From contig JAZKBF010000043.1 of NCBI GenBank assembly GCA_040388745.1, positions 84,405-148,404 of the forward strand: DNA of 64,000 nt, written 5' to 3'. The position numbers were made by a program, and so were the translations under genes. The notes under the pieces were generated by a model. The model saw only the letters and a program-made list of their open reading frames with translations. It ran no database searches and was not told the DNA's origin. Each line of letters starts with the position of its first letter. The stretch's first letter is position 1. The DNA comes from Bacteroidota bacterium. Its GTDB lineage: Bacteria > Bacteroidota > Bacteroidia > 2-12-FULL-35-15. This document shows, piece after piece, positions 50,855 to 61,249 of the stretch.

Positions 50855-51622
50855 TTAATTGTTTAATTTGTTTACGGAACTGTTACTTATAAAAACGGTG
50901 TCGATCACTGATAAGATCACATACAAAAATATAATAAAAGGGATTGCAATAAACTGAAAAAGCAATAACATTACTATAGAAGCGATTAAAAATGAATAAC
51001 GAATTTTATTGTCAGCCCATCCAAAATTTTTGAATTTAAGGGCGAATAAAGGTAATTCCGCCACCAATAAATAAGACATAAGGATGGTGAGTCCTAATAA
51101 AAACCATACGTTTTCCAAAATTGGAATTAAGTTGAAATTTCCAATATTGGGTTGAAAAAAATGAATAAGGGGCAAAGAACAAATTAATAGCGCATTAGCG
51201 GGAGTGGGAACACCAATAAAAGAGCTAGTTTGCCTGGTATCAATATTGAATTTTGCTAAGCGTATTGCAGAAAAAATTGTAATTATAAATGCAAAAAGAG
51301 GAAGATAGCTTAGTGCTACCATATTGGAGCCAGATGTTCCTGCATAAATAGCTGTAGCATTTGATAGGAATATAAACATTACCACTCCCGGTACTAATCC
51401 GAACGTTACCATATCAGCCAAGGAATCCAACTGTTTTCCAATTTCAGAATGTACATTTAAAAGCCTTGCAAGGAACCCGTCAAGAAAATCCAATACTCCG
51501 GCAATGCCCACTAAATAGGCGCTCCAAAGTAAATTATCATTGAAGGCACATACAACTGCCAGGCAGCCGCAAAATAAATTGCCGCAGGTGATGGTGTTCG
51601 GTATGTTTTTTTTAATGTTCAT
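50855..51622 (-). CDS. pssA: CDP-alcohol phosphatidyltransferase, phosphatidylserine synthase-like
   Basis: 255 aa; D(x)2DG(x)2AR...G(x)3D(x)3D motif present (DFLDGFLARLLNVHSEIGKQLDSLADMV). Confidence 0.7.
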   Translation of the reverse strand: MNIKKNIPNTITCGNLFCGCLAVVCAFNDNLLWSAYLVGIAGVLDFLDGFLARLLNVHSEIGKQLDSLADMVTFGLVPGVVMFIFLSNATAIYAGTSGSNMVALSYLPLFAFIITIFSAIRLAKFNIDTRQTSSFIGVPTPANALLICSLPLIHFFQPNIGNFNLIPILENVWFLLGLTILMSYLLVAELPLFALKFKNFGWADNKIRYSFLIASIVMLLLFQFIAIPFIIFLYVILSVIDTVFISNSSVNKLNN

Positions 51623-51714
51623 TTTGTGTTGGCGAAATTACAAATCTCCCTTTTAATTGAGAGCGAAAATACTCTTTTAATTTTAGAAACTGTTTTTCTA
51701 AATTTGAATTGTTT

Positions 51715-51928
51715 AGAGCCTGTTTAAATTTTATTCAAATAATTTAATAGGACGCTCCTAGGGAGCTTAAATTAAAAACCCTTTCATTGTTATTACTACA
51801 AACAGTTTATCCCTACGGGATATTTTCAGCTCCGGAGGAGCGTTCTGTTTGTAGATAAAGAGATACATCACAATTATAGCCCCAGAGGGGCGACCTGTAT
51901 TAAAAAATATAAAATTTAAACAGGCTCT
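51715..51928. repeat. ~214 bp element bounded by perfect 20 bp terminal inverted repeats (AGAGCCTGTTTAAATTTTAT ... ATAAAATTTAAACAGGCTCT) with nested internal inverted repeats; MITE-like or highly structured RNA
   Basis: TIRs read directly at 51715-51734 and 51909-51928; internal IRs GGACGCTCCTAGGGAGC/GCTCCGGAGGAGCGTTC and CTACAAACAG/CTGTTTGTAG; lies in the divergent intergenic region between pssA and the PorV-like gene. Confidence 0.5.
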
Positions 51929-52120
51929 TAGGTAAATTATAATTCACAATAAATTCTCAAATCTGCAGGTTTATTCTAAATCCTTAAAAAAATGAGCAAT
52001 AAGAATTAAAAAAACACGTTTTCAAATCCTCTGGCACGTTTTCGAACCCTTTTTAAGGCTAAAAAATTAGATATTAAAAAATTGACTGAACCATTATTTA
52101 GTTTAATTTTATGACCTATT

Positions 52121-53194
52121 ATGACTAAAAAGTATTTTTTATCAATAACCATTATAATAAGCATTTGTTTTAGTGCCTTTGCGCAGGCTCCTAAATACAG
52201 TAATGAGTTTTTAAATGTTGGTGTGGGTGCAAGAGCCTTAGGAATGTCTAATTCGTATATATCATCAGCAAATGATGTTACTGCCGGTTATTGGAATCCA
52301 GCAGGATTATTGGGTATTGGCAATCAGCATCAAGTGGCGCTCATGCATAGCGAATACTTTGCCGGCATTGCTAAATATGATTATGGCGCTTATGCCACCC
52401 GTTTAGACAGTTCAAGTGTACTCGGTATCACTATTATTCGTTTTGGTGTGGATGATATCCCTAATACTACTGAATTGATCAATTCCAATGGTAATGTGGA
52501 TTATAACCGGATCACTACTTTCTCAGCCACAGATTTTGCCTTTATAGTTTCGTACGCAAAAACACTTAAAATTCCCGGATTACGACTAGGAGCCAATGCG
52601 AAAGTTATTCGCAGAAGGGTTGGCAGCTTTGCAGGTTCATGGGGTTTCGGAATTGATGCAGGTGCACAATATGATTACAAAAAATGGAAATTTGCCGCCA
52701 TGGCACGCGATGTAACTTCTACATTTAATGCCTGGACCTATAATCTTTCTGAAGAAACAAAAGCCGTATTTGTGGCCACCGGCAATGAGATCCCCGAAAA
52801 TTCGGTTGAAATTACGCTGCCTAAATTATTATTGGGTGGGGCTCGTAAATTCGACTTTTCTCCCAAAATGTCATTACTTGCCGAACTGAATTTGGATGCA
52901 ACCTTTGATGGTAAACGCAGCGTAATGATCAAGAGCAAAGCCATTAGCATCGATCCTCACTTTGGACTTGAAGCATCTTATATGAATTTGGTGTTTTTAC
53001 GAGCCGGACTGGGTAATTACCAGGCATATACCGATGCGGTGGGTCAAAAAATCAAAACCTTTCAGCCCAATATTGGTATAGGTGTTCGCATTAAGTCTGT
53101 TACCATTGATTATGCCTTAACTGATATTGGCGACCAGTCAGTGGCATTGTATTCCAATGTGTTCTCCATTAAAGTGGATATTAATAAAAAATAA
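52121..53194 (+). CDS. PorV/PorQ-family outer-membrane beta-barrel (T9SS-associated) candidate
   Basis: 357 aa; signal peptide; N-terminal EFLNVGVGARALGMSNSY motif characteristic of the PorV/PorQ family; beta-strand-rich body. Confidence 0.5.
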   Translation: MTKKYFLSITIIISICFSAFAQAPKYSNEFLNVGVGARALGMSNSYISSANDVTAGYWNPAGLLGIGNQHQVALMHSEYFAGIAKYDYGAYATRLDSSSVLGITIIRFGVDDIPNTTELINSNGNVDYNRITTFSATDFAFIVSYAKTLKIPGLRLGANAKVIRRRVGSFAGSWGFGIDAGAQYDYKKWKFAAMARDVTSTFNAWTYNLSEETKAVFVATGNEIPENSVEITLPKLLLGGARKFDFSPKMSLLAELNLDATFDGKRSVMIKSKAISIDPHFGLEASYMNLVFLRAGLGNYQAYTDAVGQKIKTFQPNIGIGVRIKSVTIDYALTDIGDQSVALYSNVFSIKVDINKK

Positions 53195-58708: not shown

Positions 58709-61249
58709 CTAACCCACAATCCTCAGTTTCGCAAATTTTATTAATAATTGTTTTTGTCCAACGCCTTCAAAAAACACAGTAGTTTTATTATTCGGGAAAT
58801 CACCATCCATATTTATTACTTTACCTTTTCCAAAACGATCGTGCTCCACTTCCATACCCACTTGTAAACTCCTTAAACTTTCGGTATCAAAATCAGAAGT
58901 GTTTTTTGATGCAGTATTAATTTTAACTAAATTTTTTCCAATAACAGGTCGCTGCACAAAGGTCTCTTTAGGCTTAGTGTTATATTGTTTCGGTTTGCTT
59001 GAATATTCTTCATTACCAAACAATCGGCTGCTGCTTTCTGTTGGCATGTCTAAATATTTCGCATCCACTTCCTCAATAAATCTACTTGGTTCGCAATAAA
59101 TTAAATTCCCCCAGCGGTATCGTGTCGTGGAGTAGGAGAGGGTTACACGTTTTTCGGCACGGGTAATGGCAACATAAAATAATCTGCGTTCCTCTTCCAG
59201 ATCAGCTCTTTCCGTTAATGACATTTGTGATGGAAATAAATTCTCTTCCAAACCTACAACATACACATAAGGGAATTCCAGGCCTTTTGCAGCATGTATG
59301 GTCATTAAGGAAACTTTATTTCTATCTTCTTCAGTTTCTGTTTTTTTATCCGCATCAGTCATTAATGCAATATCCCGCATAAACAGATCCAATGTAGGAT
59401 TAGTAGTTATTTCAGTTGTTGGATTTTCAAGATCAGACTTTTGTTCATCGAAAGAAAATAACAATCCATTAATTTCATTATCTATCGCAGTTTCCTGGCG
59501 CTCTTGTACTTCTTCTTCTTGATTCTTGATTCTAGATTCTTGACTCTCATCCCCCCCTTCTTGATTCTTGATTCTTAAATCTTGATTCTCATCCCCCGCA
59601 TCTTGGTTCTCAGTTGTGATCTCCGCCCCAATGTCATTTATATCAATTTCACTTTCAGTAAATTCTTTTAATCCGTTTAATAATTCCTGAATGTTTTCAT
59701 GCCTGCTAACTCCTTCCGGTGATTTATCAGCATAAAGATCTCTCAGGATGCCCGAATGAACTGCTATGTATTGCCCCAGGTCATACGCACTATGCGTTTG
59801 AAGCATTGCAGAAAAACTTTTTATCATCACCGTAAACTCATCCACTTTTGCTTTGGCTCCTGCATTTAAACCAATGTCAAATTCATTAATATTTTCAATC
59901 ACCCTCCAAAGGCTTATGTTATGGTCGTTTGCGGCAACAATAATTCTATCAATTGTGGTGTCACCTATTCCACGACCAGGATAATTGATGATCCGTTTTA
60001 AGGATTCTTCATCATTACTATTGATCGCAAGGCGGTAATAGGCCAATAGATCTTTGATCTCTTTACGTTGGTAAAACGACAGACCACCAAATATTCGGTA
60101 TGCAATATTTTGTTTGCGCAACGCTTCCTCCATGGCACGTGATTGTGCGTTGGTACGATAAAGGATAGCGAATTCACGGTTATGCGCCTGCTCATTCATC
60201 TTTGTTTCAAAAATGGAATTGGCAACAAAATTACCTTCGGAATTATCCGATTCTGTTTTCATTACCTTAATGAGTTCACCTTCTACGTTCTCTGTAAAAA
60301 CATTTTTTTTGAGCTGTTCTTTATTTTTAGAAATAACTGTATTAGCAGCACCTACAATGATTTTTGTAGAACGGTAATTTTGTTCCAGTTTAAATATATT
60401 GAGCTCAGGATAATCTTTTTCGTAATTGAAAATGTTTTGAATGTTCGCACCACGGAAGGCGTAAATACTTTGTGCGTCATCGCCAACTACGCATATATTG
60501 CGGTATGCAGCAGCCAATTGTTTGATAATTACATATTGCGAAAAGTTAGTATCCTGGTACTCATCCACCATGATGTATTTGAATTTATGCTGATACTTAT
60601 GTAATACCGCAGGAAAATCACGCAATAAAATATTGGTATTAAATAACAGATCATCAAAATCCATTGCACCTGCTTTGAAACAGCGTTGAGCATAGATCTG
60701 ATAGATAAGGCCCATTTTGGGCTTTGCTGCCTGGCGGTCTTCTTCTAATGCCTGCTTATCATTTTGGTACGCTTGTGCAGAAATTAAATTATTTTTTGCA
60801 GCAGAAATACGCGAAAGTACCATACCCGGTTTATATATTTTATCATCCAGGCCTTGCTCTTTTAAAATCGCTTTTATTAAACTTTTGGAATTATCAGTAT
60901 CATAAATGGTAAAATTTTGAGGATAGCCAAGCTTCTCTGCTTCACTGCGTAAAATGCGCGAAAATACAGAGTGAAAGGTACCCATCCAGATGTTTCTCGA
61001 TTCGCTGGTCCCAACCACTTTGGCAATACGTTCTTTCATTTCACGTGCCGCTTTATTGGTGAACGTGAGTGATAATATATTAAAGGGATCAACACCTTTT
61101 TTTATCAGGTGTGTAATACGATAAGTAAGTACACGCGTTTTTCCGGACCCAGCACCGGCAATGATCATTACAGGGCCTTCGGTACATTCAACAGCTTTGC
61201 GTTGTACGGGATTTAATTCATCTAAATAATTCTTCGACATGGTAAGCAA
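58709..61249 (-). CDS. uvrD: ATP-dependent DNA helicase UvrD/PcrA family with ~100 aa acidic low-complexity repeat insertion
   Basis: 846 aa; Walker A AGAGSGKT, DEYQDTN, GDDAQSIYAFRGA, C-terminal helicase motifs V-VI; residues ~540-640 are repetitive (ENQDAGDENQDLRIKNQEGGDESQESRIKNQEEE), encoded by a DNA tandem repeat at ~59505-59620. Confidence 0.9.
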   Translation of the reverse strand: MLTMSKNYLDELNPVQRKAVECTEGPVMIIAGAGSGKTRVLTYRITHLIKKGVDPFNILSLTFTNKAAREMKERIAKVVGTSESRNIWMGTFHSVFSRILRSEAEKLGYPQNFTIYDTDNSKSLIKAILKEQGLDDKIYKPGMVLSRISAAKNNLISAQAYQNDKQALEEDRQAAKPKMGLIYQIYAQRCFKAGAMDFDDLLFNTNILLRDFPAVLHKYQHKFKYIMVDEYQDTNFSQYVIIKQLAAAYRNICVVGDDAQSIYAFRGANIQNIFNYEKDYPELNIFKLEQNYRSTKIIVGAANTVISKNKEQLKKNVFTENVEGELIKVMKTESDNSEGNFVANSIFETKMNEQAHNREFAILYRTNAQSRAMEEALRKQNIAYRIFGGLSFYQRKEIKDLLAYYRLAINSNDEESLKRIINYPGRGIGDTTIDRIIVAANDHNISLWRVIENINEFDIGLNAGAKAKVDEFTVMIKSFSAMLQTHSAYDLGQYIAVHSGILRDLYADKSPEGVSRHENIQELLNGLKEFTESEIDINDIGAEITTENQDAGDENQDLRIKNQEGGDESQESRIKNQEEEVQERQETAIDNEINGLLFSFDEQKSDLENPTTEITTNPTLDLFMRDIALMTDADKKTETEEDRNKVSLMTIHAAKGLEFPYVYVVGLEENLFPSQMSLTERADLEEERRLFYVAITRAEKRVTLSYSTTRYRWGNLIYCEPSRFIEEVDAKYLDMPTESSSRLFGNEEYSSKPKQYNTKPKETFVQRPVIGKNLVKINTASKNTSDFDTESLRSLQVGMEVEHDRFGKGKVINMDGDFPNNKTTVFFEGVGQKQLLIKFAKLRIVG

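Follow-up and report, generated by a model that had tools for sequence, protein, structure and literature searches.

Miniature inverted-repeat transposable elements (MITEs) of the IS5 family have been described in Porphyromonas gingivalis (MITE464/PgRS and BrickBuilt, with terminal inverted repeats, TIRs, as in ISPg1/ISPg4) and in Neisseria (ATR; ISNme1) (PMC4596501). Among insertion sequences (ISs) of this family, IS1237/ISLxx6 has a single open reading frame (ORF) and a 3-nt target, with TAA being duplicated (PMC2516522); ISCaa8, ISCaa9 and ISCaa13 of Amoebophilus asiaticus, assigned to the IS1031/IS427 groups, are 860-893 bp long and encode proteins of 253-264 aa (PMC3196728). Of the Y1 (HUH) transposases, those of subclass 1.2 were reported by Quentin et al. 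(2018) to be low-copy, without typical terminal hairpins, and to have no repetitive extragenic palindrome (REP) (PMC6006769). Here we analyse a 64,000-nt stretch of the genome of an uncultured Bacteroidota bacterium (GenBank assembly GCA_040388745.1, contig JAZKBF010000043.1, positions 84,405 to 148,404; hereafter the window), in which a short palindromic feature separates a pssA-like gene from a gene for a PorV-like outer-membrane protein. We assign the feature, with a probability of roughly 0.88, to a 212-bp non-autonomous MITE (51716-51927) of an IS5-family IS. A MITE of a Bacteroidota-wide IS5-family element is a known kind of feature; its cargo of Y1-type repeats is unusual.

The sequence-only reading of the window had described an element with perfect 20-bp terminal inverted repeats. 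The 20 nt at 51715-51734, AGAGCCTGTTTAAATTTTAT, are the exact reverse complement of 51909-51928 (100%), and this part of the description holds; the repeat is in reality, however, a 19-nt TIR, GAGCCTGTTTAAATTTTAT, plus one base of a target-site duplication (TSD). The outermost A...T pair is assigned to the TSD because both window flanks read TTA, which leaves an element proper of 212 bp bounded by 19-nt TIRs. The same reading had proposed that the flanks be inspected for a direct repeat of 2-9 bp, and a 3-bp TTA is present on either side. When up to three mismatches are allowed, the 20-mer has two sites only in the 64 kb, and two matches were obtained in none of 100 shuffles. In the ORF list, nothing within the element reaches 40 aa. 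Its ends are made up as follows.

51713..51715, no strand: left TSD, TTA; the empty site in locus L124 has a single TTA, and 3-bp direct-repeat flanks occur family-wide.
51716..51734, + strand: left TIR, GAGCCTGTTTAAATTTTAT, 19 nt, identical to the ends of IS5-family elements in L116, L049 and L051.
51735..51750, + strand: subterminal remnant of the parent IS, from the end with the last transposase codons; the reverse strand reads ..LNKI and then stop.
51909..51927, - strand: right TIR, 19 nt, perfect complement of the left TIR.
51928..51930, no strand: right TSD, TTA.

In alignments, positions 51712-51750 of the window are 87-93% identical to the IS ends in L116, L097, L053 and L117. This similarity continues for 16 nt beyond the left TIR, over the last transposase codons (the IS stop codon lies inside the TIR), and the MITE thus retains a piece of its parent IS.

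An exact scan for the 18-mer AGAGCCTGTTTAAATTTT, the outer part of the TIR, over one genome per species returned at least 120 loci. Among the matches listed, 79 of the 80 that carry titles are from Bacteroidota, and the family spans the classes Bacteroidia, Flavobacteriia, Sphingobacteriia, Chitinophagia and Saprospiria, with genera including Bacteroides, Dysgonomonas, Chryseobacterium, Flavobacterium, Tenacibaculum, Pedobacter, Mucilaginibacter, Niabella and Aureispira. The sole non-Bacteroidota match among the 80 (L013:410-427, from an uncultured Shewanella) consists of one end with no partner and may represent chance or transfer. Several genomes, such as those of Dysgonomonas sp. 521 and Flavobacteriaceae Im510_bin53, hold at least six TIR loci, and many matches fall within ~100 nt of a contig end, a placement typical of high-copy repeats.

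Full-length partners are present within this family. In L116, L051 and L049, TIR pairs 863-887 bp apart bracket one ORF of ~254-264 aa, forming elements of 865-889 bp with GAGCC ends and TIRs of 16-19 nt; the ORF scores 190.9 bits with NF033580 (IS5 family transposase; cut-off 110), and also matches DUF4096 and DDE_Tnp_1. L049, from Mucilaginibacter psychrotolerans, is itself an 889-bp contig at 334x coverage, compared with 65x for a neighbouring contig. Judged by size, single ORF and 3-nt target, the parent IS would be of an IS1031/IS427-like type. The IS1031 group is marked by a length of ~850-1050 bp, a single ORF, a 3-bp duplication and GAG ends, all of which the full-length partners show. 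A tblastn search of plasmids with the transposase gave generic 'IS5 family transposase' labels alone, at 46.5% identity or less, and a blastn search of plasmids with the element gave no match.

Some 55 TIR pairs lie just 42-340 bp apart and enclose unrelated, coding-free interiors, i.e. they are MITEs. The shortest of them are minimal TIR-TIR elements of 42-77 bp; those of 42-68 bp (L039:7869-7918, L042:4658-4699, L045:3472-3537 and L048:7585-7650; also in L111 and L115) have TWA duplications that mostly match. Identical 3-bp flanks border 44 of 59 TIR pairs (24 TAA/TAA, 18 TTA/TTA, one TAT and one TGA), whereas the TAA/TTA mixture that is expected of an extended palindrome is seen in just 8 of the 59. 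The full-length copies in L051 and L116 are likewise flanked by a duplicated TAA or TTA, and family-wide the three bases outside GAGCC... are nearly always TTA or TAA. One longer element with the family TIRs (L044:1391-2131; 741 bp, TAA duplication, without transposase) contains a long internal tandem repeat, which gives YHVRD-type repeats when translated; the element resembles the minisatellite-bearing BrickBuilt MITE.

Orthologous loci were gathered via homologues of the PorV/PorQ-family protein, and the empty site was placed by pairwise alignment. The spacers between the two genes compare with that of the window as follows.

L121: identical to the window; spacer 498 bp; element present.
L122 and L123: neighbouring genes ~92% identical; spacer 498 bp; element in the identical position, its TIRs decayed (3 substitutions).
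L124 and L125: ~92% identical; spacer 282 bp; empty, reading GAATTGTTTAGG with one TTA.
L258 and L259: closely related, with a PorV protein 98% identical; spacer 281 bp; empty.
L126, L260 and L128: more distant; spacer lengths differ; central part of the spacer occupied by unrelated DNA.

From the empty alleles of L124/L125 and L258/L259, precisely the element and one TTA are missing, and the window, L122 and L124 are at roughly equal distance from one another. The feature has four of the properties by which a MITE is recognised: TIRs that match those of an IS, a matching TSD, small size with no coding capacity, and a precise presence/absence polymorphism. The sequence-only reading had offered a MITE-like mobile element as one interpretation, and this is upheld by a TIR shared with transposase-bearing IS5 elements and their short derivatives, by the TTA duplication, and by the clean empty site. 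Two of the observations that it had named as contrary, lack of a TSD and conservation in position as ordinary promoter DNA, were not made; the TTA is repeated, and the site is empty in L124/L125 and L258/L259.

The interior of the element is not an IS remnant; it is made of REP-like units. Further inverted pairs inside the terminal repeats had been noted from the sequence, and both an inverted-repeat search and the sequence itself show them to be real: arms at 51746-51774 and 51821-51849 (29 nt) are 79% complementary, and there are further pairs, CTACAAACAG / CTGTTTGTAG, plus a hairpin, CCCCAGAGGGG. The motif GCYCCNNNGGRGC occurs three times in the window, against 0.02 expected, with all occurrences in the element, and three of the eight GC-rich hairpins with 5-bp stems in the window fall in the same 214 bp. 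The interior resolves into four units of ~26 nt, in the order C-> A-> <-B <-D, which are laid out as a CTACAAACAG-type head (CTACAAASAK), 4 nt, and a GC stem of 5 bp that is capped by a 3-nt loop; it is because of this order that the element as a whole folds into a hairpin. The units were scored with a covariance model (R2; 87 units around Y1 genes, see below), which was run unfiltered over all 64 kb.

51743..51767, + strand: unit C, degenerate head TTTAATAGGAC and hairpin GCTCC-TAG-GGAGC; R2 matches 51749-51768, the hairpin half only, at 10.5 bits (E 1.1).
51794..51823, + strand: unit A, CTACAAACAG-TTT-ATCCC-TAC-GGGAT; R2 33.8 bits (E 2.7e-6), second best in the window.
51827..51856, - strand: unit B, CTACAAACAG-AAC-GCTCC-TCC-GGAGC; R2 38.9 bits (E 1.6e-7), best in the window.
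51877..51905, - strand: unit D, degenerate head TTTAATACAGGTC and hairpin GCCCC-TCT-GGGGC; R2 16.5 bits (E 0.038), third best in the window.

Units A and B are secure, unit D is marginal and unit C is only suggestive. Unit A was the source of the pattern used for the metagenome search, and unit B was not used in defining the family; because the pattern came from unit A, unit B provides an independent test of membership. One other TIR-bounded element with such hairpins was found, in L030 (from another Bacteroidota metagenome-assembled genome, MAG); it carries GCCCCAGAGGGGC in a form identical to that of unit D, and the motif CTACAAASA-N6-CCCTACGGG is common to L030 and the window. L028 was considered as a second chimera of this kind, but was not counted, as its REP doublet lies 70-130 bp inside a solo TIR for which the partner TIR was not found. 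We also considered the likeness between the TIR (GAGC-CTGTTTAAA) and the 3' half of the unit (GGAGC-nnn-CTGTTTGTAG); R2 does not report the TIRs, and the likeness is probably due to chance. In Chryseobacterium taichungense DSM 17453 (L063:5380-6060), a ~275-bp intergenic block in tandem contains units with a variant head, CTACACAGA; this block lies outside, and 700 bp away from, a MITE of the same TIR family.

The repeat unit is widespread. A scan of metagenome contigs for the CTACAAASA-N6-CCCTACGGG motif returned at least 120 contigs, the GC contents of which range from 25 to 64% among the matches listed. Single units, inverted doublets and tandem arrays (periods of 25, 50 and 54 nt) are all represented; the IS5-type TIR is found in none of the 120 unit-selected contigs among the matches listed. 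The consensus of 139 distinct copies is ttCTACAAAsAkgyCrN-CCC-TAC-GGG-N'yT, in which the stem closes at a conserved C..T mismatch. The two stem pairs left free by the search pattern show covariation, with T-A, C-G and G-C each being common. Of the cells, 97% are paired, and 111 are changed on both sides of the stem, as compared with 34.9 +/- 9.1 for 500 shuffles, none of which was as high.

Some of these units accompany Y1 transposase genes. In L213 (130-1200), a 153-aa ORF has unit clusters in the order -> -> <- <- on both sides; it scores 85.9 bits with Y1_Tnp (Pfam) and 70.4 bits with the NCBIfam IS200 model (cut-off 55), and falls below the model for REP-associated tyrosine transposases (RAYTs; 28.3 bits vs a cut-off of 80). 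Homologues with 48-64% identity lie beside units in seven more contigs, giving a total of 8 of the 120 unit-selected contigs listed, and unit-flanked Y1 genes occur in L213, L183, L196, L133, L246, L188, L242, L215 and L250-L257. In a reciprocal test, for which loci were selected by protein similarity alone (from Melioribacter roseus P3M-2, an Ignavibacterium sp., one other genome of 5.2 Mb, and an Aureispira MAG), units adjoin the Y1 gene in all four loci, one of which has an eight-copy array. The covariance model places 87 units in 56 kb of Y1 loci; they lie no more than ~85 nt from the ORFs, in most cases to either side. The Y1 proteins share DH-H, WQ and Y---Q--HH, which is the signature of subclass 1.2. 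Literature searches found no paper describing these repeats, which is weak evidence of their novelty. In one assembly (L254 and L255; ENA ERZ25073217 ctg16657c, 480-487 kb), the Y1 gene is present as two identical copies, separated by ~3 kb and surrounded by transposase genes of the IS1595 and DDE types.

We tentatively suggest, while regarding it as rather less than an even prospect when taken as a whole, that two transposition systems are nested at this locus, with REP-like cargo of the Y1 (HUH) type inside a MITE moved by an IS5 DDE transposase, and that the units are the cognate repeats which Y1 subclass 1.2 has appeared to lack. As regards movement of the MITE, a full-length IS copy elsewhere in the genome would, by analogy with IS5-family behaviour, supply the DDE transposase in trans; the enzyme would bind both 19-nt TIRs and either excise or copy the element, which would then integrate at TWA by means of a 3-bp staggered cut, such that the trinucleotide (here TTA) is duplicated. 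Two routes may have brought the units in: a Y1 enzyme may have inserted them into a minimal TIR-TIR element, of which the family offers examples that could have received a cluster, or a cluster already resident may have been captured between two TIRs. The REP-like units are most likely passengers. The ends of the window copy are intact, and given a partner IS it should remain capable of mobilisation.

Several observations weigh against the assignment as an IS5-family MITE carrying REP-like units. Neither an IS5 transposase (tblastn with the IS5 transposase) nor a Y1 transposase gene is encoded in the 64-kb window, which holds one copy of the element and no second. By blastn the interior matches none of the 120 TIR-selected loci, an interior 20-mer, GGACGCTCCTAGGGAGCTTA, has 0 matches in JGI metagenome contigs, and the exact MITE has so far been seen at this one locus alone, in two lineages. 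For units C and D the fit to the REP model is weak (E 1.1 and 0.038). Finally, the element differs from that of L122 at six of 215 positions (97.2% identity), whilst the surrounding spacer is 92.6% identical (Fisher p = 0.028). This excess of conservation weighs against a purely neutral passenger, because such a passenger would not predict it; it is modest, and could reflect a later insertion, recombinational transfer or some constraint.

Constraint is what would be expected were the feature a former MITE that is now kept for a host function, as a hairpin-rich insulator, terminator or binding platform between the pssA and porV promoters. In keeping with this, conservation of the element between the window and L122 exceeds that of the flanking genes (~92% identical) as well as that of the spacer; all four hairpin stems are intact, the six differences being three substitutions in the TIRs, single ones in a hairpin loop and in a spacer, and an indel; and terminator-like sites, each a hairpin plus a T-run, are present at 51829-41 (+) and 51808-22 (-). 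We nonetheless consider retention for a host function improbable. Two of the four closely related lineages keep the same genes without the element; it sits in the non-conserved centre of the spacer, leaving the conserved gene-adjacent blocks intact and native upstream DNA of 93 bp ahead of pssA and of 193 bp ahead of the PorV-like gene, and more distant relatives carry ~300 bp of other DNA there; moreover, the statistic depends on six differences, which later insertion or recombinational transfer explains equally well. Nor is a promoter of the Bacteroidota type present in or at the element: the -33/-7 pattern TTTG-N17-23-TAnnTTTG does not occur in the spacer. A scan for promoters of the sigma-70 type found four sites, against 2.8 expected, and the sigma-70-like hybrid site at 51915-51943, which spans the right TIR and flank, has a consensus that is not the one used by Bacteroidota. 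The sequence-only reading had suggested that the feature could affect expression of both neighbours, a point on which these promoter scans are uninformative. The long structured non-coding RNA that the sequence-only reading had proposed as the other possibility, or a cis-regulatory leader, would accord with the very stable predicted fold (-78.3 and -77.9 kcal/mol on the two strands, z = -9.6 and -9.5 relative to shuffles); it is because both strands fold equally well that the fold is better ascribed to a DNA palindrome than to a strand-specific RNA. Rfam gave nothing relevant in 51000-52600 at E values up to 10, no match at gathering score in the whole window, and nothing relevant in seven REP-rich loci; the segment is missing from orthologous spacers of relatives, and its component repeats occur elsewhere in both orientations and in tandem arrays. 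The RNA proposal is accordingly considered highly improbable.

The interior raises the question of whether the units are instead a native REP cluster (a bacterial interspersed mosaic element, BIME), spread by a Y1 (HUH) transposase and with TIRs that are incidental. Such units do cluster around Y1 genes elsewhere, and in the same -> -> <- <- order; however, the transition from presence to absence coincides precisely with the outer limits of the TIRs, where a TTA is duplicated, the TIRs match IS5-family ends at 19 of 19 positions and the left one is followed by an IS remnant. In addition, the IS5-type TIR accompanies the units in 0 of the 120 unit-selected metagenome loci listed, and neither model R2 nor the pattern scans detect any unit beyond the element within the 64 kb, where a Y1 gene is likewise lacking; we thus regard an origin as a native cluster as very unlikely. 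The gross form of the feature also recalls the invertons of Bacteroides phase variation, in which an invertible promoter is flipped by a site-specific recombinase: like these it is a ~200-bp segment with inverted repeats of ~20 nt, located in a promoter region of a Bacteroidota genome upstream of a surface/envelope gene. It differs from them in that its repeats are ends of the transposon type, its target is duplicated and an empty site exists, in its single orientation in four independent assemblies (the window, L121, L122 and L123), and in having no recombinase gene among its neighbours within ~3 kb. To our knowledge, the repeat sequence is also unlike known invertase sites. An inverton is accordingly extremely unlikely, and the IS5-family MITE remains the reading that we prefer.

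The setting of the MITE, between pssA and a PorV-like gene, is as the sequence-only reading had claimed, with the gene identities supported by the ORFs and by PF01066 and PF19572 on homologues.

50855..51622, - strand: pssA-like CDP-alcohol phosphatidyltransferase gene (ORF; PF01066 on an orthologue); start codon 93 bp from the element. An exact-sequence look-up of the protein returned no record.
52121..53194, + strand: PorV/PorQ-family outer-membrane protein gene (ORF; source names, and PF19572 on homologues); start codon 193 bp from the element.

The spacer between pssA and porV appears to be a hot spot for insertions. In relatives that are ~80% identical (L126:1956-2501 and L260:915-1501), it contains ~300 bp of unrelated DNA, which in L260 includes a 30-nt perfect palindrome, CTTTCCTTCCTCCAATTGGAGGAAGGAAAG. 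A direct repeat, CACGTTTTCAAATCCT / CACGTTTTCGAACCCT, with 20-nt spacing, is located at 52015-52050 of the window, which places it ~70-105 nt ahead of the PorV/PorQ start; both L122 and L124 keep this repeat, and it may be a binding site for a regulator. Elsewhere in the window, 59515-59610 comprises a 42-nt tandem repeat (2.3 copies, 87% matches).

A MITE between two housekeeping genes is ordinary, and would be of use mainly as a strain marker. The TIR has wider relevance, being conserved to 17-19 nt over at least five Bacteroidota classes and breaking many assemblies at contig ends; recognition of this TIR family should thus aid the annotation and assembly of Bacteroidota genomes. The part most worth following up is the presence of the units beside subclass-1.2 Y1 transposases. 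If their link holds, an orphan HUH subclass would gain a substrate that can be tested in vitro, with a defined head and a 5-bp hairpin (CTACAAAGAT-nnn-hairpin), and the locus would be a natural case of one mobile-DNA system hitch-hiking on another. Were the nesting proposal correct, it could carry repeats into genomes or sites without Y1 activity. Were the units the cognate repeats of subclass 1.2, that subclass would constitute a REPtron-like system over several phyla; the contigs with units, among the matches listed, have 25-64% GC.

The full-length partners of the MITE resemble the IS1031 and IS427 groups in size, in their single NF033580 ORF and in their 3-bp TAA/TTA duplication; members of those groups differ from the feature in the window in being autonomous, the window holding a non-autonomous derivative only. 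Like the MITEs of P. gingivalis, the element is short, non-coding and intergenic, is from Bacteroidota, and has TIRs that start with GAG and match an IS5 element, with an interior unrelated to the transposase. The TIR sequences themselves differ (GAGCCTGTTTAAATTTT here vs GAGACCTTTGCA in the P. gingivalis MITEs), and the TIR family described here, unlike those MITEs, spans at least five Bacteroidota classes. BrickBuilt has duplications that are variable or absent, whereas those seen here are a regular 3-bp TWA, and its interior is a 23-nt minisatellite, in contrast to the REP-like hairpin units of the present element.

The closest parallels to the units themselves are the REPs, the BIMEs and the REP doublets that form hairpins (REPINs), together with their RAYTs (PMC3733652, PMC6006769). 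The units share with these a single-stranded head and a covarying hairpin, as well as their occurrence as single units, as inverted doublets, and as clusters on both sides of one Y1 HUH gene. In the units described here, however, the CTACAAASAK head is 4 nt off a 5-bp stem, whereas in REPs a GTAG abuts the stem; neither GTAG nor CGTC abuts the stem in our units, GTAG being found only at the far end of the reverse complement of the unit. In the way they work the units resemble REPs, but they fall outside the GTAG and CGTC superfamilies of PMC3733652. The associated protein likewise differs from RAYTs, in that it passes the IS200 model, fails the RAYT model and has the signature of subclass 1.2. 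The dispersed, extragenic high copy number of REPs is not seen within the 64 kb, where the units are confined to the MITE; in the window they differ from REPs, BIMEs and REPINs in being located within a DDE-type MITE, rather than free in the genome.

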